From a virus (Duplodnaviria; Heunggongvirae; Uroviricota; Caudoviricetes), in IMG/VR virus record IMGVR_UViG_3300012979_000028, positions 85,985 to 149,984 of that record: 64,000 bases of DNA; one strand, written 5' to 3'. Made by a program: the position numbers and the translations under genes. Positions 4,051 to 62,201 of this stretch are shown here, piece by piece. Numbering within the stretch: position 1 is the stretch's first letter; each line of letters starts with the position of its first letter. The notes below the pieces were generated by a model, which did not search any database, was not told where the DNA came from, and saw only the letters and a list, made by a program, of their open reading frames with translations.

Positions 4051-5336
4051 TTCCTATATTTAATTTATTTATCACATATATAAGAAACCTTGATGTGCTT
4101 ATAGGAAAATTTGTAGAAAAAAAAAATAAAGCTCAAGTATAGGTTAATATTTTCACCCATCTCTGTTTTTAAATAATAACCGAAGGTAACTTTCTTAATT
4201 AATAATCCAGTTTCTTTGTCAATTAACCTGTAATATAGATAATAAGATACTATAAAACTACTCTCCTTAAATTTATTCTGTGTTATTACTATATCTACAG
4301 TCTCTGGATCTAAGTTACTAATATTATCTGGTTTCTTTAATATTAAGTAAAGTACCTATAATACTTAGTCTTTGCTAACATAATTAATAAGTTTTCCTTT
4401 AGGGTTTATTAAAGTTAATGTTATTCGTCTCTCTCTTTTATCATCCCTAACAGATACAACAGTTACAATAACAAAGCCTCTTATCTTAGTCCTAGATTCA
4501 GTTATTGCCAATATAATGGGATTACACATTACCTCACAGCCTATATAAAAATCCCAACCACCATCACTAGTAGGACTGAACCTAAATCCCTTCTTAAACT
4601 GCTTTACAATGTTTCTGTGATATTTCTTGTATAACATTATCTACTTCTTTATTTAATTCTCCATTATATTTTATTATAGTAATCGTACGTTTCTTCCGAG
4701 AAAATACTAATCCTACTTTCTGTATTAAATATACTATAATGCAAGAATTATCTATAAAAACTCCTCTTCGAAAACATGTCCAATCACTACCCTGTAATTT
4801 AGAACTCAATTTTCTCTTAAATTTCCTAACGTGTCTTCTATGATACTTTTTGTATAACATTTGTTATGTGTTGTTCAAGTTTACCATCAGGAGATACTAG
4901 TCTGTGACGATTCATACTGCAATCTATACATACTACTTTATTATCAACAGTAAAAGGCTTTCTGATAATTGTTTCAACCACATCATATTGTAAGCTATTT
5001 TTATAAGTAATCCTAGCTCCAACTTTAAACTGCCTGATGTAGTCTCTATGATATTTCTTATACAGCATCTTCTATAAATTTCATACTATCCCCCTTTATA
5101 CCTGATCCATACATTAAAGGCACCTGTACTGGAAGATCACTAATAGCAAGCTTAATTACTGAAATATCTATACTAAAACCAATAGGAAATAGTAAATTTA
5201 TAAAAGGTTCACCAACGACCTCACAATCTATTTCTTTACCATACTTAGAAAACTTAAACTTAGTTCCTATCTTAAATCGTCTAATATAGTTTCTGTGATA
5301 TTTTTTATATAACATCTCAAGTATAAGATTTCTCTG

Positions 5337-5594
5337 TTAATATATCTGTATAGGTTCCTTCCATCTTATTATGCCATTAGAATGTATTATGGCAAACGGA
5401 AACTATATATTACCTATGACATTTATACAAATCTCCTGATTACTATCAATGTAAGGTTTTTTTAAGACTTGTAGTTCATCTGTAACCTTCTCTACTGCAA
5501 AGGTATCTGGATCACGCTTATAATAACTGAGCTTAAACTTACCACCTACCTTAAACTGCTTAACATAGTCTTTATGATATTTTTTGTAAAGCAT
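5337..5594 (-). pseudogene. MLYKKYHR-family member with premature TAG
   Basis: Stop at 5403-5405; the same frame continues as FPFAIIHSNGIIRWKEPIQIY*, which carries the family C-terminal motif. Confidence 0.7.
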
Positions 5595-8500: not shown

Positions 8501-9030
8501 TTTCAGTACTATCATCATTAACTATACTTATACCATCACTTAATTGACCTCCTGGATATACTAAAGTCCAACAGCCAGATTTATTACCAGATATGTAAAT
8601 TCTTCCACTATTTTCACACCATGGTTCTACCTCAATAGCCTCTGGTCTAAAACCTCTATACCTAAACTTAACATCTTTCTTAAATTGGCTAACGTATTTT
8701 TTATGATATTTTTTATATAGCATAACTTACTTATTTTTTCAGTTTCAGGTACAGGTACATTATCATCATCGTTAACTATACTTATTTTATTGCTTAATTT
8801 ACCATCAGGTTCTATTATGCATATATCAGCACCAACAGCAACATTTATAGAAACATTATATCCCCAGTATCTATGACCCACGTGACTTATACAAATACCT
8901 ATGAAAGGATTGAATATAACTGAGAGAATAGGTTCATTTGCTCTAGATCCATTAAACCTAAACTTAACACCTCTCTTGAATTGTCTAACGTAGGATCTAT
9001 GATATTTTTTGTATAGCATCTTTTAATTCT

Positions 9031-9096
9031 TTATAACGTGTACATATAAGATCTCGTAGATTTCCTAACATGATTCTTATAGTATTTTTTGTACAG
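9031..9096 (-). pseudogene. vestigial MLYKKYHR unit (no ATG, body deleted)
   Basis: Reads LYKKYYKNHVRKSTRSYMYTL* in an alternative frame inside the 3' end of ORF 8997..9323. Confidence 0.65.
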
Positions 9097-10388
9097 TTTT
9101 TTATAAATATATTTCTGTTTACTACACCACTATGAAATATCAACGATTCCTTCATATTATCTATACCTATAAAACGATTATATATTACAATCGGTTCCTT
9201 AAGTACAACATACTCTACATTAGTATCAATAATTGTATTGCCGCTGATTTTAATTCTTATAATAAACTTAACACCTTTTCTAAATTTCCTAATGTAGTCT
9301 CTATGATACTTCTTATACAACATGGCGTGTAATTATTATCCTGGCAAATTTTCCGTTTATAGATATTAAGTATATTTCAGCATCACCTCCACCTATACAA
9401 ACCAGCTTTCCAGATATAAAAGGTTTATTGGTAACTACATTAATCGTATGAAGGGATCTATGTATAAATTCAACTCCAACCTTAAATTGCCTTACAAAGT
9501 TTCTGTGATACTTCTTATATAACATTATCCTACTATTTCTATATCTTTCTTCATTATCAACTTACCATTTTGAGATATCAGGACCCGAGGTAGAAAAATA
9601 TCCATAATACGTATCTGTGAAAATTCAATATAAGGACCTCTCTGTATAATAGTACAACTACCATCAAAGTGAACTTTAATTTTTGTTCCAACTTTAAACG
9701 GTCTAATGTAGTTTCTATGAAATTTCTTATATAACATACTACCTCCTTCTATTTATTATTTCTATATCTTTTCTTAACCTGCCCTTGCGAGTCATCAGAG
9801 TACGAATTCGTAAATTATCTATAATACGTATCTGTGAATATTCGATATAAGGGGCTCTCTGTATAGTAGTTGTACAATTGTTTTCAAGGTGTAATTTAAT
9901 CTTTGTTCCAACCTTGAATTGCTTAACAAAGTCTCTGTGATATTTCTTATATAACATATACTATTCACCTATTATTTCTATATCCTCTCTTAACTTGCCA
10001 TTCATACGTATCAGTTTCCGAATCATAAAATCATCTTCAATAAGTATCCATGAAGGATGATAAAGATCGACATGAGGATCTCTCAGTACAGTAGTTATAT
10101 CACTATTATCAAGGTGTACTTTAATCTTTGTTCCATACCTAAACTGTCTAACAAAGTTTCTATGATATTTCTTGTATAACATCTTCTATTACCTTTATAT
10201 AATCATTAATTTTACCATTATAGAATACTACTTCTACCCAAACTCTGTTGTATTTACCTAGTATCTTAATATCATTATCCTTGGAAATACGTGGTTCTAT
10301 TTCTACTATATCTTTTTCACAGGGAGAATACTTATCCCTAAATTTAGTTCTCTTCTTAAACTGTCTAACAAAGTTCCTATGATATTTT

Positions 10389-10630
10389 TTATATAACATG
10401 TATATATTTAAATTCGTTACTTAATCTACCATCTTCAAATACTAGGATCAACCCCTTATAAACATACCAAGTCTATCAAAAAAAGGTTCTGTATTTATAA
10501 AAATATCTCGACACTCATCAATAGTAGGTCCAGATAATATTTCTACTTCAGCTTTATCCAATTCAAACTTAATCTTAACTCCTTTCTTAAATTGGCTAAC
10601 AAGGTTCCTGTGATATTTTTTGTATAGCAT
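10389..10630 (-). pseudogene. frameshifted MLYKKYHR-family member
   Basis: GGT TGA TCC TAG; restoring one G gives GGT TGG ATC CTA = GWILVFEDGRLSNEFKYIHVI*, the family C-terminus. Confidence 0.7.
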
Positions 10631-11080
10631 CTTTATTTTCTCTTAATCTACCATCAGCATACACTATAGTCCATTGACTCCAATAATGAGATTTATCATC
10701 AGAAATAAATTCTATCGCTATAAGAATCTCCCGATACTCATCAATAAAAGGTTCCAATATTATTTCTCCTTCATGTTTATCAAATTCAAACTTAAACTTA
10801 GTTCCTATCTTAAACTGGCTAATATATTTCCTATGATATTTTTTATACAGCATCTTCTATAAAACTTCAATATCATCTGCCAATCTACCATCAGCATACA
10901 TAAGACAAAGATCGTAATCATCAGACTCTCCCCAATATACGATAATAATATTTCCTTTACAAATAGGATTTCGTCTAATCTGGCGTTCACCACTAGCAAA
11001 TTTAAATTCAAATCTAGTTCCTATCCTAAATTGCTTTACAAAATTTCTATGATATTTCTTGTATAACATTTATTTTTATC

Positions 11081-11154
11081 TTTTTATATAAGGATTATTC
11101 ATCTTCTGATATACGAAAAAAAAAAAATAATTCCCCATAATCGAGGAACCTATA
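11081..11154 (-). promoter_or_regulatory. terminator plus internal promoter splitting the array into two transcription units
   Basis: Only clearly regulatory gap in the array: minus-strand hairpin TTCCTC-GATTAT-GGGGAA followed by a long T run, then a CCTTATATA motif ahead of the 11069 ATG. Confidence 0.6.
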
Positions 11155-12089
11155 CTACCCTACTATATCCAGTCCTATATTTAATCTTCCGTATTCATCT
11201 ACTAGAACAAAAATACCAAGACAAAGATTAACAATAATTCTCCTTGGCGGATAGAATTCAATAATAGGGTTACTAATTAATGTAAATACAGAAAAATTAT
11301 TAGTATTTCTATCCTTAATCTTCTTACTTATAACCTTAACATCTTTCTTGAATCGTCTAACGTAGGATCTATGATACTTTTTATATAACATGTAGATACC
11401 TATTAACTCTACCTCCCGAATGTACTAAAGTCCATATATATTCACCATCTTCTATATCAATTCTAGACGATGAAAAATTAGGTAGATAAGGTTCTTTAGT
11501 AACTTCAATAATAGTTTTGATACACATAACCTTAGCTCCTTTCTTAAATTGCTTTACAAAATTTCTATGATACTTTTTATATAACATGTAGGTACTTATT
11601 AATTTTACCACTAAAGTATACTAAAGTCCATGTACATGATTTACCATCTTTTATATAAATTCTAGATGGTGAAGGATCAGGTATATAAGGTTCTATTGTA
11701 ACTCTATATCCATTACCATTTCCATATCTGCCTACGATGAACTTAACTTCTTTCTTAAATCGGCTAACAAAGTTCCTATGATATTTTTTATACAGCATTT
11801 CGCAATCTACCACTAATAAATACTACAAACATAAACACACCGGAATTATAATAGTTCATTGCCTTTATCAAAATTCCATCTTTATCAATAAAAGGTTCTC
11901 CAATAACTAAGTACTTACCTCCACTAAGATAAACTGTAACACCCTTCTTAAATTGCTTTACATAGGATCTATGATATTTTTTATACAACATCTTCTTCTA
12001 TTTTGATACTATAATATTACGATTAATATTAATAGATCCTTCCGAATATATTATTACCCAGTGATCTTCTTTTTTAATAATATCTTCAA

Positions 12090-12136
<47 letters not shown>

Positions 12137-15100
12137 CTAAATGTATCTCTATTACTCACCACTAATCTAGTTACTGTAGCTTTGTAGGAAATAAAACAAC
12201 CTAACCTAATAACTTTCTTTCCTTTCCTAAACTTTCTAATGTAGGATCTATGATATTTCTTGTATAACATTTTATTTATTTACTTTTACTAATTGTCCGT
12301 CACGATTAATTATAGTCGTCTGAACTGGAATATAAGTGTAAGCCCTAATTACCTTAGAGATTATATTAATATTAATAAAAAACTCATTTATAAAAGGTTC
12401 ACCAACGACCTCACATATCTCTTTTTTATTATTAATATAATTACTCATAAACCTAAATCCCTTCTTGAATTGACTAACGTATGATCTATGATATTTCTTG
12501 TATAACATTGTATTTCATTAATTTGCCATCAAATTCTATTAAAATCCAATAATCATTATAACCAATGTAAACTCTTCTTCCATATTTCATTATAGAAGGT
12601 TCAACAAAAACTTGATCAATAATTTCAAAATCACCTTCAAGTTTAACACCTATCTTAAACTTTCTAACGTAGGATCTATGATATTTCTTGTATAGCATTT
12701 ATATTATCAACTAATCGACCGGATGGCATTACTAGAGTCCAGGGACCGTATTTACTATCAATAATACGAATTGTTCCTCCAACATAATACGGCTCTATAG
12801 TAATTTTTCCTTTAACACCATTATTATACCTAACTTTAGCTCCTTTCTTGAATCGGCTAATAAAGTTCCTATGATATTTCTTGTATAACATCTTATTTCA
12901 ACATTTCGAGAGCATTTCTTTTACTAATCTACCAAGACTATTAACTATTACTCTTATGTGATATCCACCAAAAATATTCACAACCACTGATTTATGTTTA
13001 ATATAAGGATTTCCAGATGTCATATAAGATCCTGGGATAGAACATTTACTAAATCTATATCCACTCCTAAATTGCTTAACGTAGTTTCTATGATATTTTT
13101 TATACAACATCTTCTATAAATTTTACCTTCTTATATACAATAATACCCAATGAGCTTATTAAATTCCAATTCAACTGTCGTTTCGTACTACATATTATAG
13201 ATGATACGAATATGCAACTTTTAAAAATGCAAGGATCTTTAAGAACTTCATAAGTATTATTATAACTTTCCAATTTAAATCTAACTCCAACCTTAAATTT
13301 CTTGACAAAGTCTTTATGATACTTCTTATACAGCATCTTCTATAAATTTTAATCTATCCTTGCCTAGTCTACCATCTGGAAAAACTATAGTCCAATGTTC
13401 TGGAAAATTATCAATATCACCATTCTGAATTACCATAGCATCTACATGTATAACATAACGGTAATTCATTATAAAAGGTTCAACTTCAACCTCCTTAAAC
13501 CCATCAAAGCCCTCATGTCTAAACTTAACTCCCTTCTTAAATTTCTTGACAAAGTCTCTATGATATTTTTTGTATAGCATATTATTTTTACATCATATCA
13601 CGATTAATAGATCCATTCGAGAATACTAGAAGTGCACGAATACCACTATCAGTCATCACACTAATATTACTTAGAGTATAGTTAGAATTAGGTTCTCCAA
13701 TTGTGTACGATGACCTTCCACTACTCCACCAAAACTTAGTTCCTTTCTTAAACTGTCTAACGAATTTCCTATGATATTTCTTATATAGCATATTAATCAT
13801 CTATATCCTCTCATTCAAGTTATCTACATCAAATAGTAACTTACCTTTATAATCTATTAAGTATATATTGGAATATCTATTAGTAATAAGCTCATGGCAG
13901 GAGGCAACTACGTATGATGTAAAATTAACTTCTGGCTCAGTAGAAATTCGACCCATGTATATACCTTTACCTTGACCAATTTGCTTCTTGATTACAGTTC
14001 CCTTCTTAAACTGCCTAATATATTCTCTATGATATTTCTTGTACAACATATAGATTCTTATTAATTTCACCTCTCGAATATACTAGATCCCAACAGCTAT
14101 ATTTACTATCTTTCATAAAAATAAATCCATTGCATATATAAGGCTCTTTCCTGACTGTTTCTACTGAACATCTATTCCACTTAAACTTAGCTCCTTTCTT
14201 GAATCGGCTAACGTAATTTCTGTGATATTTCTTATACAACATGGATATCACCAATTAATTGACCCTCCGATGATACTAGAGCCAAATTATGATGTTCACT
14301 ATCAATCAAGCGGATATTTCTTCTCCAAAAAGCTTTATCATAATATGGTTCAACAACAACCTCAACAACCATTTCTTCATGATTGTAAAAACTAAACTTA
14401 AACTTAACTCCTTTCTTAAGTTGTTTAATGTAATTCCTATGATATTTTTTGTATAATATATAGGTACTTATTAATTTTACCGTTCGGATATAATAGATTC
14501 CAAATTCCTTCATTATTAGTCATTCGGATTACCGAGACAAAAGCATCATAATAAGGATCTCTTTCAACTGTATATCTTGATCTTGAATATCTAATACCAT
14601 CTCCATAAGCAAACTTAACACCTTTCTTAAATTGCTTGATAAAATTCCTATGATATTTCTTGTACAGCATTTTATAATTTCTACTTCAACTAATTGACCG
14701 CTTGGAAATATTAGAAATAAGTCATTTTTACTACCAGTTATGCGAATATTTCTTCTCCAAGACCTTCCATCATAATACGGTTCTCTTTCAACTACATCTT
14801 TATAATCCTTATTATAAGTTTTATAGCTAAATTCAACACCTTTCTTAAATTGGCTAACAAAGTTTCTATGATATTTCTTGTACAACATGTAGATTCTCAT
14901 TAATTTGACCTCCTTGATATACTAGGTTCCAATAGCCCTTACCACTAATCATGCGAATTGCCTTAAGAATTCCATCATAATATGGTTCTGTTTCAACTAT
15001 ATATCTGTATATTCCCGTCGTACCAAACACAGCTCTAAACTTAAATTGCTTGACAAAGTTTCTATGATATTTCTTGTATAACATATAGATTATTATTTAA

Positions 15101-17734
15101 TTGACCATCTGGATATAATAGATTCCCTTATAAAGTTTTTAAGAATTTTACCTTCTGAATGCACTAAAAACCACACACCGCCTCCATTATCCTTTATATA
15201 AATAGAATTTCTACCTATTATTAGTTTTGCATTTGTAAATTCTCTAAAACGTGCAAATACCTTACTAACATTTCTAACAAAATTCCTATGATATTTCTTG
15301 TATAACATTTATAAGGTTTTTAAAAGTTGTACCATCAAAAAGCACTATTATCTGATCTACTACTTGACTTGGACGTTCCTGAGAGTAGACGAAGCAGTGT
15401 ATATTTCCACATTCAATATGAGGTTCTTTATCAACTACACATTTATAAACTTTAGTTTCTGAACCTTTTATTATATACTCAACTATAACACCTTTCTTAA
15501 ATCGCTTTACGTAATTCCTATGATATTTTTTGTATAACATGTAGGTACTTATTAATTTTACCTCCCGGAAATACTAAATCACATATACACCTTCTATTAT
15601 CCTCTATGCAAATAAAACCTCCACTCGCTAAAAAACCTCTTACAACTTTTCTAAGACACACATCACCTATAGCCTTAAACTCAGTTCCTTTCCTAAACTG
15701 CCTAATGAAGCTCCTATGATATTTTTTATACAACATATATAGTCTTATTAATTTTACCTTCCGGATATACTAGGGTCCAACTATTGTACGTTGTTTTACT
15801 AGTTATATAAATACTTCTATCAATAGGAGAAATCACTATCTCATCTACAATACTCTCCGAATAATGATCCTCGTAACAAAGCTCTCCATTAACTTTCTCA
15901 ACCACACCATCAGCTACCTTAATTAATGAATAAAGAGTGTATTTAAACTTAGCACCTTCTTTAAATTGGCTAACGAAGTTTCTGTGGTATTTTTTGTATA
16001 ACATCTTCTACTAGTTCAATTCTATGATTAATTTTACCATCTGAAGATACTAGAGCCCACCTAATCCAACCACCAGGTTCATCAATAGTAGTATCAACAG
16101 TTATGTAAGATCTCCCAGTCACTAAATTCAACCTAGGAAAAGGTCTTGTAGTAACGGTTTGAATATCACTATCTTTTCTCAATTTAGCACCTTTCTTAAA
16201 TTGACTAACGTAGTTCCTGTGATACTTCTTATACAGCATTTTCTTCTATTATTTTTATACTTCGTTCAATCCTACCTCCTGGAAATACTAGAGTCCAACC
16301 AAATTTTTTACCTGTCATGTTAATACCTCTATTATAAAAAGGTTCTTTCCTAACTATATCCTTATAAATTTCACCACTATAAGCTTTAAAACCATACCTA
16401 GTTCCCATTTTAAACTGCTTTACAAAATTTCTATGATATTTTTTATATAACATCTTTTTCTATTTTGATATTATAATTAATCTTACCATCTAAGAATATT
16501 AAGACCCAGCTACCAGACCTGCAAACCCCACTATAAACATAAGGCTCTATCACAACTTTCTCCCTATAATAAGCTTTAAACCAAAACTCAGTTCCTTTCC
16601 TAAACTGACTAATATAGTTCCTGTGATATTTCTTATATAACATGTATAGACTTCTTTCTAACTCTACCATCTGAGGATACTAGAATCCAACGACCAGTAC
16701 GTTTACCAGCCACATAAATTCCTCCATAGTAAGGCCTTATTTCAACTTCATCAACATCAACTACATCTCTATCAAACATTTTATCTGGAGAAGTCGTCGG
16801 ACAACCAAATTCAACACCTCTCTTAAACTGTCTAACGTAGGATCTATGATATTTTTTATATAACATATATAGACTTCTTTTTAATTATACCATTCGAAAA
16901 TACTAGAATCCAACTGCCATGTCTACGTTTATCAACCACATAAATCCCGCGAGGCTCTATTTTAATTTTATCAACTACACCTCTTTCATATATTTTATCA
17001 GGTGAAAGAGAAGGACGATCAAATTCAACGCCTTTCTTAAATTGGCTGACGTAGGATCTGTGATATTTTTTATATAACATCTTTTTCTATTTTAATCTTA
17101 CAATTAGTAGTTCCATTTGAAAATACTAGAATCAAATCATAATTAATTCCAGTTATGCGGATATTTCCATAACCTATATAAGTATAAGGCTCTTTATTGA
17201 CTACATCCCTATGAGTTTCATAACTAAACTCAGTTCCTTTCTTAAACTGCCTAATATATTCTCTATGATATTTTTTATATAGCATTATATTACTTTTATA
17301 TTTCGTTCAATCCTACCAATTGAATATACTAGAATCCATCTATATTTATCACCATTTACATGAATCTCATGAAAATCAACTTTAAAATAAGGCTCTACTT
17401 CAACTACCTCTGCTGAATACTCTTTATACCTAAACTTAACGCCTTTCTTAAACTGACTAACGTAGGATCTGTGATATTTTTTATATAACATCCTTTTTTA
17501 TTTTAATCTTATAATCAATTCTACCTTCTGGGAATACTAAAGTCCATTTACTGAATTTACCAATCACTTGAATCTCAACTTCATAATGATTTGTAAAAAC
17601 ATCAATAATACTAGGCTCTATTACAACTATATCCCTACAAATTCCTTTATACTCAAACTTAATTCCGGATCTAAATTGCTTGACATAATTTCTATGATAT
17701 TTCTTGTACAACATATTTTCTATAAACTTTCATC

Positions 17735-17744
17735 CATATATAAG
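17735..17744 (-). promoter_or_regulatory. putative phage promoter at the head of the array (CTTATATATG)
   Basis: The same CTTATA core recurs just upstream of many genes or units (about 4072, 20258, 20944, 23551, 29044, 29149, 29696, 54771, 61969, 62099, 62192; plus strand 58790). Confidence 0.6.
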
Positions 17745-20189: not shown

Positions 20190-20380
20190 AAAAATAATAA
20201 TTTAAAAAATTAATTAATTAAATAGGTTTTATAAAAGTTTTTTATTTATTTATCATCAAGTATAAGAAACTTCCTGCTTCTCAACTTCCTTTTTTATTTT
20301 TTTTTTCAATTAATACAGAGTCCAGGTGTAAAAAAAAAATAAAGCCTAATCTACTATAGACTAAGCTTTAAATGATCTTA

Positions 20381-24273: not shown

Positions 24274-25340
24274 TATAACTTCTTTATTAATTTTAAACCA
24301 GTGGCTCTAAAACCTGTTTCATCTGCTGGCTTTTTTGTTCTTACTACTTCAAAATAATTCTCTAGATCATTGGCTTTTGGAGATTTATTATAATTATGCT
24401 TACTATAAATCTCAGTCAATACTTCTTTAGCTTCCTTATTAGAGTATACTTCCCCTACAGAAAACCGCTGATAAATTTCTTCTTTCATTCCATCCTTATT
24501 CATTACAGTAGCTGAATATTCTCTATCAACATAAGTAACATTATAACCATTAGCTTTACATCTCTCCGGTCCAAGAACTAGGTAATAATTCTTATAGATT
24601 AGTGGAACTTGATCAAGGATAACACTAACCTCACTCTCACTAAAACCACTCTCACATAGGGTTTTCAGTTTATCATTGAATGAAGAAAGTGTATTAAAGT
24701 GTTCTATAAAATCTAAGATAGGCTTCTCTAATAACTTCTCATTCTCTTCCATAACTTGTCTAATACTCTCACCCATATCCTCTTCAAATTTATCTAAAAA
24801 ATTATCCTCTGTAAAAATACTCTTCCCTATCTCTCCTACATAGTATTTAATATTCCTAGTAAGATCTGATTCAATATTGTTTGAGTTTTTTAAAGTTAAA
24901 GAGGATGTTATTTTCTTGTTATAGAATATATTTAGACAGTTTTTTATATAACTTCTCAACTCTATAAATTCTTCAGTAAGTTTACCGGTAGCATCTCTAA
25001 CAAAATACTTCGGATCTCCAACTCCTAGTACATTATTTAAGTCATCTACAGTTTTATAAGTATTAAAGAAATTTACTATTGAACCGTCATCATCATCCTC
25101 AAACCATTCTCTTCTATATACTCTTAAATCTTTAAACCTATTATGTATTAAACTCTCATGTCTTTCTGTACCTCCTGGAATTGTATATAAAACTTTACAG
25201 AATGGATTATGTAAGTAGTAAGTATTAAACCTTCTCTCATCATTTCCTCCATCTCCTGTATAACCTATTTTATAATAAGTTTTAATATTTCCTTTACCTT
25301 CCTGAAGATCTTCACCTTTTGATATTATTAAGTAAATCAT
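24273..25340 (-). CDS. GIY-YIG/T5orf172-like nuclease with a C-terminal domain shared with the adjacent helicase
   Basis: IYLI...YKIGYT...RR...E..IH.....REWF pattern; the C-terminal region of about 150 aa is clearly homologous to the end of 25337..27379. Confidence 0.75.
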   Translation of the reverse strand: MIYLIISKGEDLQEGKGNIKTYYKIGYTGDGGNDERRFNTYYLHNPFCKVLYTIPGGTERHESLIHNRFKDLRVYRREWFEDDDDGSIVNFFNTYKTVDDLNNVLGVGDPKYFVRDATGKLTEEFIELRSYIKNCLNIFYNKKITSSLTLKNSNNIESDLTRNIKYYVGEIGKSIFTEDNFLDKFEEDMGESIRQVMEENEKLLEKPILDFIEHFNTLSSFNDKLKTLCESGFSESEVSVILDQVPLIYKNYYLVLGPERCKANGYNVTYVDREYSATVMNKDGMKEEIYQRFSVGEVYSNKEAKEVLTEIYSKHNYNKSPKANDLENYFEVVRTKKPADETGFRATGLKLIKKL

Positions 25341-27379
25341 AGCTTCTCCAATATTTTTACACCTTCAACTCTTTTTCCTTCTACAGTCTTAGTCGCTCTC
25401 ACAACCTTGAAATAATTCTCTATATCATTAGCTTTAGGAATTTTATTATATCCATAGCTATTGTATATTCCAGTCAACCACTCTTTTATCTCTTTATTAG
25501 AATAGATTTTTCCTAGTTCAAAGGTTTTATGAATTTCTTTTTTCATTTCTCCTTTATCCATTACCAAATCTTCATATTCTTTTCTGATATCTGTAACACT
25601 ATAACCATTAGCCTTACATCTTTCAGGACCGAGGACTAGATAGTATTTCTTGTAAGTTAGTGGAATTTGATCAAGAATAGCTGACATCTCATACTCACTA
25701 AAACCACTCTCACACAAGGCCTTCATCTTATCATTAAAATTTGAAAGATTATTAAATTCTTCTATAAATCTACTAACTTCGCCACCTTTATTCATCAATC
25801 CCTTTTTCACCAAAGTATTAAAGACTGAAAATCGATCTTTATAGTCAATCTGCTGTATATCGAATGCTCTCTGCTCTGCAATTAAAACTAAGTTATTAAG
25901 AACTGGGAACATATCTTTACCAGAGTGCTCATTAATAGCTATATAATCGTACTTATAGTTAGACGCGTTAGTATCTCTTTTGTACTTTTCAGTTAGGGTA
26001 TGTTTAAATTCTGTAGTGTCATAAGTAGAAAGTAACTCATTGGTTTTTTTCATTTTAAACTCTATAAACTTATTAAATTCTTCTTGAGTCTTTATATTTT
26101 TGCTAGTCTTATAATAAAACTCTGCCCTATTCTTCCAAGGATTACTATCGTTTCTCTGTCTCCCTAGGATCTGAGGTAAATCTAGAGAAATATCGACTGC
26201 TAGGGTCTCAACATTTGCGTCACTGATTATAACTGTTCTAGCATTTGTCGAATAAAAATCGGCTCCTAAGTAAACTGTTCTTGTACAAAAGGTAAACATT
26301 TTATGCGGCTGACCTAATAATGGTATATCTCCAATTTCCCACTTTGAACCTAATCTTCTCTTTAGTTTTTTCTTATTATCCGGTGTATCTGCTATCATAA
26401 TATTACACTGATCAGGCTTTAATCCACACTTATTAATTATTCCGATAATATTTACAACTGAATTTACAAAGAAACAAACTTCTTTCGATTCTATTGTTTG
26501 TATATTTCCTTGTTCATCTTTGTAGCTCATCTTTTCAAAATTTCCCTCCAGGTACTCTTTGATAATTTTATAAGCAGGCTCATTCACACTCTTACATGTT
26601 CTCACTTTTAAATCTGGTTTAAGTATTCTACAAGGATCCTCAGTTTCCCAATCTAATTCATAATAAGGAAGATCTTTAAACTCATCTAGTCTTTCTAAGT
26701 ATTCATCGATCATTGGAGTGGCTGAAAGATAACAAACCTTCTGCAATCCTTGAAGATGATGTACAAATTCTAACTCTGTATCACTCTTAAAACGACTATC
26801 TGTGAAAATACTCTGAAATTCATCAATAACTACTCTAAAATTTTTCATTCTATCCCCTAGAGTTTCCTTTACAATCCTGAAAGAATCGTAGGTAACTATA
26901 ATCTTTACAGGAAAACCGGAAAGACTTCTATTAAGAGAATACGAATTTATTAGATTCTTTAAGGCTTCTATAATCTCTTGCTGTGTAGTCTCCGGAGTAA
27001 TGTCTGTAAGCTTAGTCGGAACAATACCTGATGATCTATTAAACTTTTCAAGATCTTTATCAGTAGTCTCATCCTGATCTAGACTATTATTAACATAGAG
27101 TACTTCTCCAGGGTGTTGTTTCTCTTTATTCCTTAGTAGTAATTTTCTTGGAGAACAAAGAATAACATTTTCAGAGTTGGTTAGGCAGTACTCTGTAAAA
27201 CCACAACCAGGTATCTTTTTATCTACAATACATGGCTCCTCCGGAATAACAAAATCCTTCCACTGTGACATAAACCTGATTCCCGCAGGAACCGTAATCT
27301 TAATCTTTTTCATTTTATTTATTTTTTTTTTGTTAAACATCTCGAATTGTGGAAAAATCAAGTCGCAGAAGGAGCCCAT
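25337..27379 (-). CDS. SF2 helicase-like protein (possible origin-binding/initiator type)
   Basis: Variant Walker A PGCGFT, IDEFQ (motif II), LSATP (III), TRTVYLGADF (V), QILGRQR (VI). Confidence 0.75.
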   Translation of the reverse strand: MGSFCDLIFPQFEMFNKKKINKMKKIKITVPAGIRFMSQWKDFVIPEEPCIVDKKIPGCGFTEYCLTNSENVILCSPRKLLLRNKEKQHPGEVLYVNNSLDQDETTDKDLEKFNRSSGIVPTKLTDITPETTQQEIIEALKNLINSYSLNRSLSGFPVKIIVTYDSFRIVKETLGDRMKNFRVVIDEFQSIFTDSRFKSDTELEFVHHLQGLQKVCYLSATPMIDEYLERLDEFKDLPYYELDWETEDPCRILKPDLKVRTCKSVNEPAYKIIKEYLEGNFEKMSYKDEQGNIQTIESKEVCFFVNSVVNIIGIINKCGLKPDQCNIMIADTPDNKKKLKRRLGSKWEIGDIPLLGQPHKMFTFCTRTVYLGADFYSTNARTVIISDANVETLAVDISLDLPQILGRQRNDSNPWKNRAEFYYKTSKNIKTQEEFNKFIEFKMKKTNELLSTYDTTEFKHTLTEKYKRDTNASNYKYDYIAINEHSGKDMFPVLNNLVLIAEQRAFDIQQIDYKDRFSVFNTLVKKGLMNKGGEVSRFIEEFNNLSNFNDKMKALCESGFSEYEMSAILDQIPLTYKKYYLVLGPERCKANGYSVTDIRKEYEDLVMDKGEMKKEIHKTFELGKIYSNKEIKEWLTGIYNSYGYNKIPKANDIENYFKVVRATKTVEGKRVEGVKILEKL

Positions 27380-27946: not shown

Positions 27947-28660
27947 TTATCTTTCTTTCTTTCTATTCTTATACATCATACCAGCCCCAATACCAGTTAC
28001 TGCTAAAGCAGGTAGACCATATTTTAAAGCGCCGGACTTAATAATTTTTCCTCTATTAAAAGCTGCTTTCCCCTTTATTTTATTTACCTCCCGGTCTGTT
28101 ACTTCTTTACCAAATTTTTCTTCAATACCTTTTACTTCCTTTTCTAAGTCTGAATCTATTCGTTTTAATGTATCATTATGACGGTTTTTTAACTTAATCT
28201 TTTCCATTCCTAAACTATCAATCTCCTTTAAATGTTTACCTCTATTACTAAGCTTCTCATCGAGCATCTTCATCTCACTCTCTATTTCTCCATCAATTTC
28301 CTTAAGAGATTTGTCATATCTGGATTTAGCAGAATTTCTCATCCACTCTGCCTCACCTTTTGCTTGATTAATACGTTTATCATAGACTTCTTTATTATCA
28401 GCTACTAGATCATTTATTTGTTTATTATAGAAAGTTTTATTATCATGAACGTCATATAGTGTTTTTCCAAGTCCAATTCCAGCTCCAACAGCTCCAATAC
28501 CTGTAAGTCCTATTCCAATTTTTCTATTACGATCTCTAGATTCCTCTTCTGCAAATTCCTTTTGAGCAGCCTGGTATCCTTCACAGAATGCCTTTTCTTC
28601 TATAGCAGATATTAGATCTTCCTCACTATAGATACTAAATACTTTTCTTGTAATTCTCAT
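27947..28660 (-). CDS. MRITRKVFS-family protein, two Gly-rich hydrophobic segments
   Basis: N-terminus shared with 52668 and 53835; close paralog of 53835..54470. Confidence 0.8.
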   Translation of the reverse strand: MRITRKVFSIYSEEDLISAIEEKAFCEGYQAAQKEFAEEESRDRNRKIGIGLTGIGAVGAGIGLGKTLYDVHDNKTFYNKQINDLVADNKEVYDKRINQAKGEAEWMRNSAKSRYDKSLKEIDGEIESEMKMLDEKLSNRGKHLKEIDSLGMEKIKLKNRHNDTLKRIDSDLEKEVKGIEEKFGKEVTDREVNKIKGKAAFNRGKIIKSGALKYGLPALAVTGIGAGMMYKNRKKER

Positions 28661-28766: not shown

Positions 28767-29015
28767 TTATTTAAGGACTTCTTTCAGGTAATCTCTTATT
28801 CCATCTCCTGTTTCATCAAGTTCCCAGATATCAAGGTCATTTATTTTCTGGAACCACTCCAACAGATTTCCTACCTTAACCTCTACTATATCATCTTCAT
28901 TTAGTATAATATAGTCTGATGGTTTTGAACAAGTATTCCTATATATTTCAGCATGACTACGTTCTTCACCTGAATATACAACTTTCCAACTTGATTTATC
29001 GACAACTAACCACAT
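28767..29015 (-). CDS. hypothetical protein (82 aa)
   Basis: ORF with upstream CTTATAAGTGA motif and downstream hairpin (AAAGCCC...GGGCTTT). Confidence 0.7.
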   Translation of the reverse strand: MWLVVDKSSWKVVYSGEERSHAEIYRNTCSKPSDYIILNEDDIVEVKVGNLLEWFQKINDLDIWELDETGDGIRDYLKEVLK

Positions 29016-29075
29016 AATATTTAATTTATTTATTGTTTGTTATTCACTTATAAGACTTACAGACAGATTAAAGCG

Positions 29076-29160
29076 AAAAAGAAAAATAAAGCCAACCCCT
29101 CTCGAGCTGACTTTACTAATAATATGGAAAATAAACAACAAAGTATATTCACTTATAAGG
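29076..29160 (-). ncRNA. candidate small RNA unit A
   Basis: CTTATAAGTGA motif, about 35 nt of unique sequence, hairpin TAAAGTCAGCTC-GAGAG-GGGTTGGCTTTA, T run; no minus-strand ORF. Confidence 0.5.
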
Positions 29161-29173
29161 GTTTGTTCGGATT

Positions 29174-29557
29174 TTAATTCTCCCCTTCCCTTTTTCTTCT
29201 TTCTAGTTCTTCTTTTGCTATTCTTTTTCTTTTAGCATGATGAATTCTAGAAAGAGCATCAACAGCACCAGCACCACCCAAGCCTACTGCAGCTCCGATT
29301 AACGCTCCTCTAGGTACAGAAGAATTAAGATGACTTGCACCTCCTATTGCTGCACCAGAGATAAGACTACCGCCGTAAAGTAGAGCTCTATTCTTTCTAA
29401 AGTTCTTTTCTTCTTCAGGTGTTCTTTCTCTACTAGTGTTTTCTAAGTACTTGGTTGGTTTATTTCTTAGTCTATCGTAATCCCATTCTTCTCTATAGCC
29501 TATATATTTTTCAGCAGGGATATCATCATTTGATTTAGAAAAACGTTTAATTCTCAT
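29174..29557 (-). CDS. MRIKRFS protein with Gly-zipper-like hydrophobic segments
   Basis: Same CCTTAAATTTGAAA upstream motif and leader as the MRITRK genes; GAAIGG and GALIGAAVGLGGAGA segments. Confidence 0.75.
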   Translation of the reverse strand: MRIKRFSKSNDDIPAEKYIGYREEWDYDRLRNKPTKYLENTSRERTPEEEKNFRKNRALLYGGSLISGAAIGGASHLNSSVPRGALIGAAVGLGGAGAVDALSRIHHAKRKRIAKEELERRKREGEN

Positions 29558-29621
29558 TTTATCTATAGTTTTTATTAGTTTACTTTCTCTCTTTCAAATT
29601 TAAGGACAGGAAATAAAAAAT

Positions 29622-29706
29622 AAAAAAAAAATAAAGCCAACTCTCTCGAACTGACTTTACCGTTGACATATTGCTTAAATAAACAAATTCTACTTGCATA
29701 TATAAG
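29622..29706 (-). ncRNA. candidate small RNA unit B
   Basis: CTTATATATGCA motif, about 38 nt of unique sequence, hairpin TAAAGTCAGTTC-GAGA-GAGTTGGCTTTA, T run. Confidence 0.5.
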
Positions 29707-29784: not shown

Positions 29785-30420
29785 TTATTTTCCGTTATTC
29801 TTCTTTTTCAATACACTTAAATTAGCTTTTATAGAAACTGCTCTTAAGTGGGTATGGTTATTGTGAAAGTTTATAAAATCATTAATAATATCTTGATTTG
29901 TAAATACAACCTTTGAGTTTTTATCTTCACTATCATTATTAAGTGAATTTATTAATAGTTCTTTATTTTGATTTACTAACCAACTTTTAAAAACTTCTTT
30001 AAATGTGAGATCATAATGATCTATATGAAAACTATTACTATCTAAAATTAAATCTCCTGTAATTGGACAATTGAATGGGAGTTTATTAATATATTTATTT
30101 CTTTCTTCGATTATTATTTGAGATATTGCATTTCTACAGGCACATTCTATCTTTTTGTCAATAGAAGTGCTGCTTATGCACTCATTAAATGAAATATCTG
30201 TATTAGTGTTATCTATTCTATAAATCCAAAAACACTTATTCTTCCAAGTTGGGTTAATCCTTACTTCAATGTGATCAATTCCGACTCCTTGTTTTTTAGT
30301 CCAATTTGGATGATTCTTAAAGATAGCTATTAAAAATTCATAATCACTCGGATCAGATACTAAACCATTATACTTGTATAATAGTTCTCTGCACTTTTCT
30401 GTTAATTGCTTTTTATTCAT
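29785..30420 (-). CDS. DCL/DeCL (DUF3223)-like domain protein with C-terminal HNH-like motif
   Basis: HPNWTKKQGVGIDHIEV...KCFWIYRIDNTNTDISFNECI resembles the DUF3223 consensus; CPITG...HIDH follows. Confidence 0.65.
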   Translation of the reverse strand: MNKKQLTEKCRELLYKYNGLVSDPSDYEFLIAIFKNHPNWTKKQGVGIDHIEVRINPTWKNKCFWIYRIDNTNTDISFNECISSTSIDKKIECACRNAISQIIIEERNKYINKLPFNCPITGDLILDSNSFHIDHYDLTFKEVFKSWLVNQNKELLINSLNNDSEDKNSKVVFTNQDIINDFINFHNNHTHLRAVSIKANLSVLKKKNNGK

Positions 30421-30481: not shown

Positions 30482-33400
30482 TTACATATTTTTTCTTATT
30501 TTAAATTCTTTCTCTTTACCATCATTGAATTTAGTTTTTCCTTGAGCAGTCTTACTAAAACCTAGGTATCCGTTCCGAAATTTCTTTAAGTTCTAATTTT
30601 CTTAAAGACTAGACTATATCATTACCTATATTTCAAGGTAGCTCGCACTTCGAAAATTGGAATTTCACCAATAATCTACTCCCTATCAGGATAGTCGTTG
30701 CACTTTCTCTGTTTCCAGAGCTTAGCACAGGATTAGCATCTCAGCCTTCCCTGTTAGCCTTAAAGAGAATCCTTTAAGACACCCTAGATTTCTAGGTTCA
30801 CGAGCTTTTCACTTATAAATTTCTTTATAAGGGGACAAATTAGTTCATCCTTCTGATACCGATTGTGTTAGTAGAACCGCACTTAGGACAGGTATAATTC
30901 TCTTCGAAAGGTAATGAATCATCTCCTATCCAATGATTACCACATTCACGACATCTATTCTGAGCATGATTAATACTCTGATACATACCAAGGCTCATTG
31001 AATATCGAAGAAGACTTTTAATACCTTCATTCATTTCTGGAGCGATAGATGGAATTCTCACATGACAGATACAACCTCCAACTGATAATGGGAAAAATAC
31101 AGATTCTTTCTTTATCTTCTCTATTTGTATAATGTCATCTTCTACATTCATATGGAAAGAGTTAGTAAAGAATCCATTATTAGTTACTCCTTTAACCTTG
31201 CCATATTCTTTGATAAATTGTTCACACGCCAATGGCAGCCAACTTTCCCCGGGGGTACCATAGAGGGCCCATAATAATCCATCTTCTTTTTTATAGCGTG
31301 CGATATTTTCATTAATATGCTTCAAGGTTTCTACTGCAAAACTACTATCTTCAGACAATTTTTTACCTAGATGTAGTTTAGTTAGTTCATGTAATCCACC
31401 GTAACCAAAGCTAATTGTTGATTTCTTAAGTACAGGTTCAATACAGTCATCCGGACCAAGTGTACCTCCGTCAAATCCACCTTCCATAAATACTAGTGGA
31501 TCACACGAAGCCTTGAGTTTATAGAGATAATTAGCAGTTTTCTTACCAATATTTCTACCAATTGACATATAGTAATCAAGTACATCAAAGAATTGTTTAT
31601 TTTCTGTTTTTGCCTTCATATAGATCATAGGCAAGTTAAGTGAAACAACGCCGAGATTACAACGATAGATCTCAAATTCGTCATTTTCATTTTGCGGTAT
31701 ATAAGTTCCTGATCCTTTAAATTCAGGACCAAGGAATGCTCTACACTTTAACCTTCTAGAGGTTAACGGACTATCTCTTCAGAGGTGATTAGTCTCTGCT
31801 TCGCGCTTCGAAATAAGGAGTTTCACCCTAAATCTACTCTACTTGGTTATTCATAATATCACTTATCTAATAGTGCAATATTATTATCCGTTCGATAGTC
31901 TCTACACTTTATTGAATTAGTTCTAACTTATAATTATTAGTTTTATAAATTTTATTTAGTTTTAGCTGTTCTGTTATTTTATTTTTATTTTTCAAATTTT
32001 CATCTCTTATTAATTTAGATATGGACTCATATATTTTTGAAAAACCAGTATTAAGATCCGTGTACATTACTTGAATTCCTCGCTTAGGAGATTTTTTGAT
32101 ATTTTTCATTTTCTCCCTAAACTCAGGATCTCTCCACATCTCTTTTCGTTTCTCAATAATATTATCCCTATACTCCTTACTTTTCCACGCAGCTTTAACA
32201 CCTTTAGATACTTTATTTCTATATTTGTCTGATTTCCATAGATCCTTCATTTCTTTTGATCTCTTTTCCTTAAATTCCAAATTACTCCACTGTAATTTTG
32301 CAGCAGATGACATCTTTTCTAATGCATCACTATCGAACTCAGATTTATTAGATTTTCCACCAGGCTTAATATTATATCCATTACTAATTGAATTATACTT
32401 AGTTATATAATAAATTTCTAGTTCATCTAATTTTGTTTTTACTTCTGCTTTAGTTGGAAGATCTATCTCTTCTAATATACTAAACTCAAAAGCTTCGTAT
32501 CCGTATTTTTTAACTGCTTTATCGAAGTAAAAGTTTCCTCTTGCTTTCCTATGTTCATGCTGCCGTCTAACTAAATGAATAGTTTGACCAACATAATATT
32601 TTATCTCCGTTTCACTCTTTCTATGAGTATATAAATAAATATATCCTTTCATATTAGTAATTTAACGAAAGAACTAATTCAATCTTAGCACGGTATTATC
32701 TATCTGAGAATTAGAGCTTTCTCAGCAGCCTTCACCGTTAGCACTAATAGGTTAATCAATCCTATCAGAACACCCTAGTTTTCTAGGTTCACGAAGTTTT
32801 ACATGAGCTGTTTCTTAAATTCCCAGAATTCTCAGATTTCTTAGGGGTTTCTAAAGTTCTTAACTTAGATTCCTAGATTTCTTAGATTCTAGTGTTCTTA
32901 GATCCGACCCATGGGGCTCACGACTACTTTATATTTATGATATATCTCTCCGACATATCCAGCATCGAGTGATAAAAAGTCAGGATACATACAATTTTTT
33001 GCAGTTTCTACAGCTCGATCAAATAGGTCTTCCATTGGAGCTCCCTCGCCATGAAGTTCACTATCGTACAAAAATACAAGCTTAGGGAAAAGTACTGGCA
33101 CTTTAGCATTCTCTTTACCCTGGCCACCTCTACGTACATCAAGGAATACTTCACTTAGCATCTTAGACCAACGATCAGTACCATGACCGAATGTAAACGT
33201 TATGACAACTTGTCTTTAATTTTCATTAAAGGTTAGACTATATCATCTTCCATTAATCTGGAAGGATTGCACTTCGGAATAAGGAATTTCACCTTAAACC
33301 TACTCCCTCTCGGGATAGTCGTTACACTTTCTTACTTATCTAGTAAGCTTAGCACGGTATTACCAGCTACCCATTTCTGGGCCTTAGGCTTTCTTAGAGA

Positions 33401-35132
33401 GTGTATTCTTTAACTCATTGATGGTTAAAATTATATAACTCTTACCGTTAGCATTATAATCAATACCTAATACTTTCGCAACTGTTGTTTTAATATATAC
33501 ATTGTTAAATTTATCTACTCTAGCAAAATGTTTTCCTTTGTAGGAGAGTCTATTGTTTTCCAAGTTAGTTACTTTACTTAACTGTTTCATTGCTAACCGG
33601 TCATTGTAGATCTTTTCTGCACAGTCTATCATACTTCCATATAGATCTAATGTATCTAAGTCTATAATCTTTATGGCTCTAAGGGCATCTTTACCCTTTC
33701 TACCATAAGACGGATTATTCTCTCCTCTCTGGGAAATTCTCATTTTTGCTTTTGTATATTCAGATTTCAGTCCATTATACCCTCCGTACTCCAGGTTATA
33801 CCCTTTTCCGTGGTCTATAATAGTATCCAAAGTTGCGATATAATAGATCTCTCGTTCATTAAGCTCATCTAATGATGAACAATGTTCTATGATTTCTATT
33901 TCGAAATTAGTTATTCCATATTTCCTGATAGCTCGATATAGAGGGTAATTGTAACATTCAGCATTTTTATTAAACCCCGTTTCCTCGTGCAATCTGGTTC
34001 TGTTATTGAAATCAACGGTCTGTCCTATGTACAGTTTATTGTTGATAGTATTTGTTATTTTATAGATTACCCCGAAATATCCGACATAATCTTCTTCCGT
34101 AAACTTCTTATTAAATTTCTGTTTTTTCATAATTCATTAGAATTTATTTACGAAAGTATTATTTGATTATAATACACCCTAGATTTCTAGGTTCACAATC
34201 TTTTCATTAGCAAATTACTTTACTAAGGCGCCCATAATTTGACTTGACGCAAAATCTCCACGTGAGCTAGCAATCGAATTCATACTGTGTTCCATGTGTT
34301 GATATTGCTGCTCCGCCTCACGTCTAACTCGATTATATGCATATTTATCAGCCAAGGATTTATCTACATTACCTCCGGCCTCTTTAATTAGATCTTTATA
34401 CTGTTCGATGTAGAATTTGTAAGATTTTTCAGCATACTTAGCAAACACCCGGTCGATTTCTGGGATAGTGAAGCCTCCATATTGTTGTCCCGCTGCAGCG
34501 GAGATTAGATCCGTAGTTACTGACATTGCTGCTGCTAGAGATTTAGGCTCAGTATAATCTAGGTTAGCCAAACTAAAACCACCTTCAAGCACTCGACCTA
34601 GATTAAAAAGGCAACAATTGAAAGTACTAAGTCTATCTTTCATATCATGTATGTAGATAAAACCTTTCTCAGCAGCCTCTAGTTCTTCAGGGTTTAGAAA
34701 CAATCTTTTATATTTCTCTTTCTGCATCTCACCGAACAGGATACTTCTCTTTGTTGAAACTAGTAAAGAGTCAGCATTAGCATTACTTCTATCCTCTTTA
34801 TAGGATAGTTCAAGAGTTTTAGCATCAACTGCCTCCATGATTTTCAATGCACTCTCTTTATAATTTCGATACTGCCTGTAGCTTTCGGCAACTCTATGAA
34901 AACCAGAATCATCAAGAGCTACTTCTACGATATTATGAAGTTTTCTTACACCAATTTCAGGTTCAGTAATAAGTTCTAGGACTCGATCAGATACTTTCTT
35001 ACAATCCTCATCAGACATTACTTGGAGAATTCTTTCAGCGCTTTTTCGGATTGCTGTATGAATTTTCTCACGATCAAATGCCTCAGTAAATCCTTTCTGC
35101 TTTTTCTTTACTGTAATTTCACTGTCAATCAT
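30482..35132 (-). CDS. nrdD: class III anaerobic ribonucleotide reductase, 4 exons (35132-34247, 33205-32907, 31745-30847, 30575-30482; 725 aa)
   Basis: N-terminal ATP cone, YIHD, SSRGDFA|FITFTFG, PMG|CRAFL, CxxC...CxxC and glycyl-radical motif RRM|NGYLG are restored by splicing at U|...G junctions; exons sum to 2178 nt, in frame. Confidence 0.93.
30576..30846 (-). mobile_element. group I intron 3 of nrdD (271 nt, no ORF)
   Basis: Exon ends in U and intron ends in G; core elements CAACGACTATC and GATATAGTCTAG; removal restores RRMNGYLG. Confidence 0.88.
31746..32906 (-). mobile_element. group I intron 2 of nrdD (1161 nt) carrying a homing endonuclease
   Basis: GGT|...G|TGT junction; TAGAGACTATC and GAGATAGTCC core elements. 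Confidence 0.88.
31909..32652 (-). CDS. intron-encoded GIY-YIG homing endonuclease
   Basis: GYIY...YVGQT...R..EH...E..YI...GYN, followed by NUMOD3-like repeats. Confidence 0.9.
   Translation of the reverse strand: MKGYIYLYTHRKSETEIKYYVGQTIHLVRRQHEHRKARGNFYFDKAVKKYGYEAFEFSILEEIDLPTKAEVKTKLDELEIYYITKYNSISNGYNIKPGGKSNKSEFDSDALEKMSSAAKLQWSNLEFKEKRSKEMKDLWKSDKYRNKVSKGVKAAWKSKEYRDNIIEKRKEMWRDPEFREKMKNIKKSPKRGIQVMYTDLNTGFSKIYESISKLIRDENLKNKNKITEQLKLNKIYKTNNYKLELIQ
33206..34246 (-). mobile_element. group I intron 1 of nrdD (1041 nt) carrying a homing endonuclease
   Basis: GCG T|...G|TC ATA junction; TAACGACTATC and GATATAGTCT core elements. Confidence 0.88.
33384..34130 (-). CDS. intron-encoded GIY-YIG homing endonuclease
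   Basis: GVIYKITN...YIGQT...E..YI...GYN. Confidence 0.9.
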   Translation of the reverse strand: MKKQKFNKKFTEEDYVGYFGVIYKITNTINNKLYIGQTVDFNNRTRLHEETGFNKNAECYNYPLYRAIRKYGITNFEIEIIEHCSSLDELNEREIYYIATLDTIIDHGKGYNLEYGGYNGLKSEYTKAKMRISQRGENNPSYGRKGKDALRAIKIIDLDTLDLYGSMIDCAEKIYNDRLAMKQLSKVTNLENNRLSYKGKHFARVDKFNNVYIKTTVAKVLGIDYNANGKSYIILTINELKNTLSKKA

Positions 35133-61965: not shown

Positions 61966-62010
61966 TTATCACATATAAGAAAATAAACTTGGAATATCAG
62001 TAAAATTAAG

Positions 62011-62109
62011 AAAAAAAAAATAAAGCCAATCTATCTCAGACTAGCTTTATACAATAAAATTAGTAACAGTACACAAAAAGACAAAAATTGAATTTATTGC
62101 ATATATAAG
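62011..62109 (-). ncRNA. candidate small RNA unit C
   Basis: CTTATATATGCA motif, about 50 nt of U-rich sequence, hairpin TAAAGCTAGTCT-GAGAT-AGATTGGCTTTA, T run. Confidence 0.5.
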
Positions 62110-62123
62110 AAATCTAGAGGAGG

Positions 62124-62201
62124 AAAAAAGAAGGGTCAATCCATCTCGAACTGATCCCTCCAAAGAACATGACTTTTGATATAATTTCTACTGTATATAA
62201 G
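62124..62201 (-). ncRNA. candidate small RNA unit D
   Basis: CTTATATACAG motif, about 33 nt of unique sequence, hairpin GGGATCAGTTC-GAGAT-GGATTGACCC, T run. Confidence 0.5.

Follow-up and report, generated by a model that had tools for sequence, protein, structure and literature searches.

Short ORF-less cassettes, each made of a promoter motif, a variable U-rich segment, a hairpin, and a T run, are present in the window, by which we mean the whole 64,000-base stretch analyzed here. Judging from the sequence, the cassettes are real and are very probably small RNA (sRNA) genes when all RNA readings are taken together. By analogy with the FopS RNAs of Bacteroides thetaiotaomicron, we see about an even chance that their RNAs act in trans to repress translation initiation, probably on host mRNAs, with seeds that change from one strain to another. 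A repertoire of many different and changing seeds, driven by a phage promoter and set on a terminator marked by its loop, appears to be new, and it extends across a clade of jumbo phages. No published description of such cassettes turned up in the literature searched, which lacked most subscription papers.

The carrier phage and the cassettes in the window

The window corresponds to positions 85985 to 149984 of G000 (IMGVR_UViG_3300012979_000028), a linear virus record of 184,228 bases with an estimated completeness of 49%. Profile hits in the window include RNA polymerase beta-type subunits, a DnaB helicase, NrdD, and homing endonucleases. The metagenome runs with the best DNA matches to G000 were from bovine gut and rumen, and their contigs span parts of the locus; no RNA run was among the 24 listed. 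Only 3% of G000 genes are preceded by a Shine-Dalgarno-like motif, and 61% have an A at position -3. This is as expected with a Bacteroidota host (PMC6847099).

One relative, G013, is complete at 353 kb. Helicase relatives were found on contigs of up to 389 kb, and records of 340 to 400 kb have the promoter motif and the cassette in common with G000. The published Jug phage clade has genomes of 360 to 402 kb and predicted hosts in Bacteroides/Phocaeicola (available text of PMC12880540). The main text of that paper, as far as available, contains none of the terms small RNA, sRNA, promoter, terminator, and antisense (PMC12880540). An RNA polymerase query for relatives confirmed none.

(a) Unit A. 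Unit A is on the minus strand. Its class-1 promoter motif, CTTATAnnTGnA, is at positions 29148 to 29159, and in G000 the same motif precedes 29 ORFs of at least 50 aa with A-rich leaders. The variable segment (29116 to 29147) is 32 nt long and is predicted to be a single-stranded seed. Its complement reads as a leader, an ATG (plus strand, 29124 to 29126), and seven open codons, and so resembles a translation start, as the initial annotation had proposed. The hairpin (29087 to 29115) has the loop GAGAG, is followed by a T run to 29076, and is terminator-like.

(b) Unit B. Unit B is on the same strand. It has a class-1 motif at 29695 to 29706, found by the motif scan, a variable segment of 35 nt at 29660 to 29694, and a hairpin with the loop GAGA at 29632 to 29659, with a T run to 29612. 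The complement of the segment is A-rich as claimed, and it contains no ATG in the G000 strain.

(c) Units C and D. Unit C is at 62010 to 62109 on the minus strand, with the promoter motif at 62098 to 62109, a U-rich segment of 48 nt, a hairpin at 62021 to 62049, and a T run. A probable unit D (62119 to 62201, minus strand) is in tandem upstream of C. It has a variant promoter-like motif at 62191 to 62201 and a segment of about 29 nt, the complement of which reads as ATG plus open codons. Its hairpin (62130 to 62161) has a GAGAT loop on a different stem that resembles that of the distant relative G013, and scores 38.2 bits on the cassette covariance model. The fold z of the whole unit is only -0.3.

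The coordinates thus agree with the two ORF-less minus-strand units first described, each with motif, segment, hairpin, and T run. Unit C and the probable unit D, which the covariance model adds, had been missed.

The predicted RNAs of A and B are 65 and 67 nt long. In each, the 5' part is predicted to be open or only weakly folded, and a single terminator hairpin forms the 3' end (fold z of -3.9 for A and -3.2 for B). The RNA start was set about 5 nt after the TG of the motif by analogy with one B. thetaiotaomicron start. Rfam at gathering thresholds gave no hits in the whole window.

The genes downstream of A and of B each have their own promoter motif. The 82-aa ORF after A (28767 to 29015, minus strand) has a class-1 motif at 29043 to 29054, so unit A is not needed as its leader. 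Between B and A is a neighboring 127-aa ORF (29174 to 29557, minus strand) with a TAnnTTTG-type motif at 29593 to 29604 and no family hit. The neighbor upstream of B is a 211-aa DUF3223 ORF (29785 to 30420, minus strand).

Other features of the window were recorded alongside the cassettes. Paralogous minus-strand ORFs at 27947 to 28660, 29174 to 29557, and 53835 to 54470 begin with MR(I/V)(T/K)R..FS and contain glycine-rich hydrophobic stretches. Each is behind a CTTAAATTTGAA motif, which fits the host TAnnTTTG promoter. They have no PHROG or meaningful Pfam hit, and in relatives they are often downstream of cassettes. A long tandem array of about 60 overlapping ORFs of 60 to 130 aa occupies 4365 to 17714 on the minus strand, with a class-1 promoter at 17733 to 17744; at least some of the ORFs begin with MLYKKY. 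A comparable array, with ORFs of 140 to 180 aa, is near 238 to 244 kb in G013. The anaerobic ribonucleotide reductase gene (30840 to 35132, minus strand) is split into fragments separated by two GIY-YIG homing endonuclease ORFs; the interruptions are probably introns. A 680-aa helicase-like ORF (25337 to 27379, minus strand) has no PHROG or Pfam hit, and several diverged copies of it are present in G000 and G004.

Promoter, hairpin loop, and turnover of the cassette family

The class-1 motif reported for A and B was found in both, and it occurs 10 times in the window against 1.61 expected. Across G000 there are 50 occurrences, compared with 8 for the reversed pattern. The sequence after the motif is A-rich in gene leaders (A 0.60, T 0.28; n = 29, ORFs of at least 50 aa, G000) and U-rich in cassettes (T 0.54, A 0.29; n = 10, G000). 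The motif therefore behaves as a promoter, and the cassettes are unlike leaders that have lost their gene. Where the canonical sigma-ABfr promoter TAnnTTTG has TTTG, the promoters of A and B have TATG or AGTG within CTTATAnnTGnA. The motif is likely read by the phage's own RNA polymerase, given the beta-type polymerase genes that the phage encodes.

The hairpin pattern occurs three times in the window and not once in 100 shuffles. The initial annotation had described a near-identical hairpin with a GAGA(G) loop. A shared loop was found, of the form Y-G[A/U/G]GA(N) and not strictly GAGA. Of 18 cassette hairpins, 16 carry the loop Y-G[AUG]GA, compared with 7 of 170 gene terminators (p 6e-16); among unassigned hairpins it was seen in 3 of 67. 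Counts in G013 (16 of 16 cassettes, 3 of 36 gene terminators, and 15 of 23 unassigned hairpins, the latter probably variant-promoter cassettes) and in G015 (4 of 5, 2 of 35, and 0 of 18, respectively) are inflated and not independent because both records were retrieved with a pattern that contains the loop. G009, G011, and G012 were retrieved via the helicase. They carry the loop in six of seven cassettes (one of the six is doubtful), on stems unrelated to those of G000. Cassette stems thus vary between lineages while the loop recurs.

In the stem alignment of 18 rows, 99.1% of cells are paired and 5 of 12 pairs are changed on both sides, a level reached by 0 of 500 shuffles; these counts rest on related paralogues. 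The hairpins at 20340 and 54823 lack the loop motif, as first noted, and are 10 to 15 nt past stop codons. The stems of these two gene terminators are related to the cassette stems, with 27.5 and 39.8 bits, respectively, on the cassette covariance model. The consensus terminators in Rfam end in c-GuGaa-g for FopS and C-GuGA-G for BTnc231. Since the loop is cassette specific in the clade and is also part of the FopS and BTnc231 consensus, it points to a host-type sRNA terminator feature that is used for cassettes and rarely for genes. It may have a role in RNA stability or protein binding.

The promoter-plus-terminator scan retrieved 10 cassettes from G000, 1 from G004, 2 from G009, 5 from G011, 5 from G012, and none from G010; a few of these are probably ordinary terminators. 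Cassette lengths are uniform. G000 has at least 10 cassettes. The initial annotation had proposed a covariance-model search, which in the window added C and the probable D. The model was trained on 18 cassettes. At E of 0.05 or less it matched 15 places in G000, namely, 9 training cassettes, 3 new loop-bearing candidates (at G000 151066, 148103, and 64537), and 3 gene terminators with related stems. G013 contains 17 cassettes, several of them in tandem arrays.

A relaxed cassette pattern retrieved 32 IMG/VR loci (one of which, L081, folds poorly) and 10 metagenome loci, and reversed-pattern controls retrieved none. The tight hairpin pattern had no matches in IMG/VR. One cassette is common to 19 of the 32 IMG/VR loci. 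In L082 and 18 related loci, from human-gut records of 200 to 400 kb, one cassette is nearly invariant, and its complement reads MSLKI. Another unit of promoter, segment, and terminator, at G000:C1:36120-36215 (plus strand), has a long hairpin whose loop is of another type. Its segment contains an AUG complement that is followed by a stop.

Segments differ between strains. The segment of unit A is identical in L009 and L011. That of unit B differs in L008 and L011, with a constant 5' part and a different 3' part in relatives. One contig from run X1 has seven substitutions and two deletions in positions 29661 to 29681 of B, with the promoter and the 5' part unchanged. This allele has one loop change that keeps the motif, and it appears to gain an AUG complement (read by eye from the variant table). 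In the same contig the spacer upstream of B varies about as much, so the divergence of B is no evidence of positive selection. At the G000 179937 cassette, L005 and L013 carry a different segment, and two cassettes of L004 have no counterpart at the corresponding place in G000. Just before the window, at G000:C1:85765-85951 (plus strand), is a tandem pair with related 5' parts. One X1 contig skips 102 bases from hairpin to hairpin in this pair and lacks one unit, as expected from recombination between hairpins.

Variable segments and target searches

In the first set, the complements of 14 of 30 segments read as ATG plus at least four open codons to the end, compared with 6.2 in dinucleotide shuffles. 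The set was enlarged with cassettes from G013 and human-gut records to 36 clusters from 45 segments. Six of 51 segments, judged to come from probable gene terminators or hairpins of another type, had been excluded manually, and one of the six carries the loop. Start-like complements are present in 15 of the 36 clusters, against 7.8 in shuffles (p of about 0.005) and 5 on the sense strand. Start-like complements that also have an A at -3 are present in 11 clusters, against 5.4 (p 0.015; 36 clusters). An ATG alone is not enriched (23 of 36 clusters, compared with 20.3 in dinucleotide shuffles; p 0.15). About half of the segments, B included, have no open start-like complement.

The segment of unit A has 13 nt in common with a cassette of the distant G013 on another stem. 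Its 21-nt complement is exact in six IMG/VR records, in three of which it is at the start codon of an ORF of at least 60 aa. These exact matches read like a gene start and name no target.

The initial annotation had found no exact target for A or B in the window, and this held. In G000, the ungapped complement search and the genome-wide gapped search both gave matches at shuffle level. In RNAduplex on 303 G000 start regions, 14 of 15 shuffles did as well as A and 5 of 15 did as well as B. A gapped search on 2,963 start regions of eight clade records retrieved nothing above shuffles for either unit. At the level of the family, the enrichment of start-like complements hints at start regions as targets; for A and B, no specific target was found in the phage records searched.

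No own-genome match above shuffles was found for any of the 10 G000 cassettes or for 14 of the 17 G013 cassettes. Targets of the G000 cassettes in their own genome can be missing from the record because it is only 49% complete. The other three G013 cassettes beat all 14 shuffles genome-wide, where about 1.1 are expected to do so by chance, and all three best matches cover the phage's own start codons. One G013 pair is a clear outlier (-26.7 kcal/mol, z of -7), the only one among 53 segments against the 2,963 clade start regions.

In the outlier pair, the G013:C1:217976 cassette (minus strand) pairs over about 27 nt with 241125 to 241153 (plus strand), the start region of the phage's own 147-aa gene in the paralogue array. 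This pairing is conserved in G014 without compensatory change. The G013:C1:248062 cassette (plus strand) has its best genome-wide match at 267772 to 267800 (plus strand), the start of a 483-aa gene, and the G014 allele pairs less well. In the two pairs checked of the three, no compensatory change was found between G014 and G013. The 483-aa protein looks capsid-like, but PHROG returned nothing for it and the PDB nothing meaningful.

A 26-nt exact complement of A also spans the beginning of the gene for a head maturation protease in G016 (L168:907-1515, minus strand). G016 has a Shine-Dalgarno-like motif before 32% of its genes, compared with 3 to 5% in G000 and G013, it matches no other G000 seed, and it was picked out of 2.9 million contigs scanned. 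For these reasons the match is probably due to chance. A match of A to Prevotella phage Lak-C1 (23 of 23 nt, E 2e-3) falls within a 316-aa ORF, in its 3' end, where there is no terminator, and was treated as chance. BLAST of A, B, and one G009 segment against phages and plasmids gave chance-level matches only. A GTDB scan for the start shared by two tandem cassettes gave two matches, one in Paenibacillus and one in a MAG, neither at a start codon. Nothing was found in four further genomes of one phylum, and the available supplementary tables of PMC10994844, PMC11697453, and PMC7366714 contain no relevant row for the target motifs. Most targets are probably in the host, by exclusion and analogy.

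Comparison with known systems and alternative explanations

The cassettes have their own promoter and intrinsic terminator and no ORF, as do start-blocking sRNAs. FopS RNAs of B. thetaiotaomicron are paralogous RNAs of 65 to 70 nt that block the translation of susC-type mRNAs by pairing beside the start codon, and a FopS sequence was noted in one Caudovirales phage (available text of PMC11697453). GibS of the same species uses a single-stranded 5' seed over the start codons of mRNAs that lack a Shine-Dalgarno motif (available text of PMC7366714).

Like FopS (RF04319), the cassettes are multicopy, with predicted RNAs of about 65 to 70 nt that have an unpaired 5' part and a single terminator with a GUGAA-type loop. 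The FopS seed is complementary to a leader plus AUG, and the complement of unit A is of the same kind. Unit A aligns to positions 1 to 71 of the FopS model with seed and loop in register, at 13 bits (E 4.3). The gathering cutoff is 56 bits and the best score anywhere in the genome is 14.8, so A was rejected as a FopS member. The model has six weak matches across G000, none of which is a cassette at cassette boundaries. Only A resembles the FopS seed (p 0.013, uncorrected, for one of 30 segments), and the other seeds are unrelated. FopS copies have one R1/R1' seed in common, whereas the cassette seeds are nearly all different (36 clusters among 45 segments). FopS has a canonical sigma-ABfr TAnnTTTG promoter, and the cassettes have the phage class-1 motif. 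By analogy, the cassettes appear to work like FopS and GibS by design, yet they lie outside FopS membership.

In the BTnc231 (RF04180) consensus, as in the cassettes, an anti-AUG-like 5' end is combined with a terminator loop, here C-GuGA-G. Unit B scores 18.4 bits on this model, against 80.4 for BTnc231. Unlike the cassettes, GibS (RF04182) and BTnc231 are single-copy host genes of about 145 to 154 nt with internal hairpins. VpdS of VP882 and PreS of lambda are also phage-encoded sRNAs that change the fate of host mRNAs in infection, but both are single Hfq-dependent RNAs of Proteobacteria, and the available text of PMC12197685 describes no exchangeable seed repertoire on a common scaffold for them.

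CRISPR mini-arrays and other guide-repeat systems have a variable part of 30 to 50 nt beside a constant hairpin, in tandem arrays. In contrast to these, each cassette has its own promoter and terminator. The window has no hit to an Rfam CRISPR repeat, phage searches found no near-perfect protospacer-like match, and no effector was identified.

In the preferred reading, each cassette would be a stand-alone gene for a small RNA of 65 to 85 nt. It would be transcribed from the class-1 promoter by the phage polymerase and terminated at the hairpin. The unpaired 5' part would then pair in trans with the translation-start region of a target mRNA and block ribosome loading, as FopS and GibS do. The predicted target site of A is a leader plus AUG-GAA-AAU, and that of B is an A-rich leader upstream of a start codon. 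Recombination between the common flanks, a promoter on one side and a hairpin on the other, could add, remove, or exchange seeds. The initial annotation had proposed a modular guide-plus-handle sRNA system. The multicopy clade-wide family, the variable part, the cassette-specific loop, the stem covariation, and the start-like complements support its modular small-RNA-like character. The hairpin may be a protein handle or simply a host-style terminator, and no target for A or B was found in the phage records searched.

It is less probable that the cassettes encode antisense RNAs with phage targets, either the phage's own genes (for timing or dosage, the targets lying in the half of the genome that the record lacks) or genes of rival phages. 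The three G013 cassettes with best matches over own start codons, the outlier among them at -26.7 kcal/mol, would fit this, as would the half-complete state of G000 and the 26-nt complement of A in G016. About one such G013 result is expected by chance, two of the pairs show no compensation in G014, the outlier is single, and the G016 match has the Shine-Dalgarno share, the missing second seed match, and the scan size against it. We consider it improbable that the RNAs lack a specific mRNA target and are host-like mimics that titrate a host RNA-binding protein (RbpB-type or another loop binder). Conservation of the loop beside freely varying segments would fit this, as would the finding that RbpB binds FopS 5' regions and is titratable (available text of PMC11697453). 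No RRM_1 protein is encoded in any of the five phage records searched, so any RbpB-type partner would be the host's. A decoy would need neither open reading frames in its complement nor 10 to 17 different sequences, and the segment of A is identical in two other strains.

Equally improbable is an origin as promoter-terminator pairs that were left after gene loss, or serve as punctuation, and were duplicated with no RNA function. Related stems are indeed found at the ends of ordinary genes (20340 and 54823), close strains differ by gain and loss of cassettes, and in one contig the spacer upstream of B is as variable as its segment. Such a remnant would be expected to keep an A-rich leader, whereas the segments are U-rich. 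The loop sets cassettes apart from gene terminators, and does so on stems that are unrelated, and the uniform lengths, tandem arrays, and start-like complements above chance also argue against remnants. Action in cis, as an attenuator leader of the next gene or as an antitoxin-like RNA opposite a small peptide gene, is very improbable. Short opposite-strand ORFs do begin at the complementary ATG (17 aa for A and 63 aa for the cassette at G000 85864), but the gene that follows A and the one that follows B each have a separate promoter. None of the 10 cassettes has an opposite-strand class-1 or TAnnTTTG promoter within 200 nt, the peptides are unrelated, and 4 of the 10 lack such an ATG. With no opposite-strand promoter and no conserved small peptide, both the attenuator and the type I toxin-antitoxin readings were rejected.

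A bolder form of the FopS-like reading is a programmable RNA-silencing arsenal of Jug-like jumbo phages. In this form, 10 to 30 exchangeable guides on a host-type Y-G[AUG]GA(N) handle would load a Bacteroidota RNA-binding effector, be swapped by recombination, and shut off host receptor or defense mRNAs at their start codons. We regard this as speculative and unlikely in full.

Few sRNAs of Bacteroidota have been described mechanistically, and most phage sRNAs known so far are single RNAs of Proteobacteria. If the reading of the cassettes as trans-acting repressors is true, an abundant clade of gut and rumen phages uses at least a dozen distinct RNAs that block start regions. The targets of these RNAs would then show which host genes the phage needs silenced, such as those for receptors, defense, and transport. 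The loop that the cassettes have in common with FopS and BTnc231 would be a testable handle for a factor that stabilizes or loads Bacteroidota sRNAs. The cassette hairpin may also be a ready scaffold for synthetic sRNAs in gut Bacteroidales.
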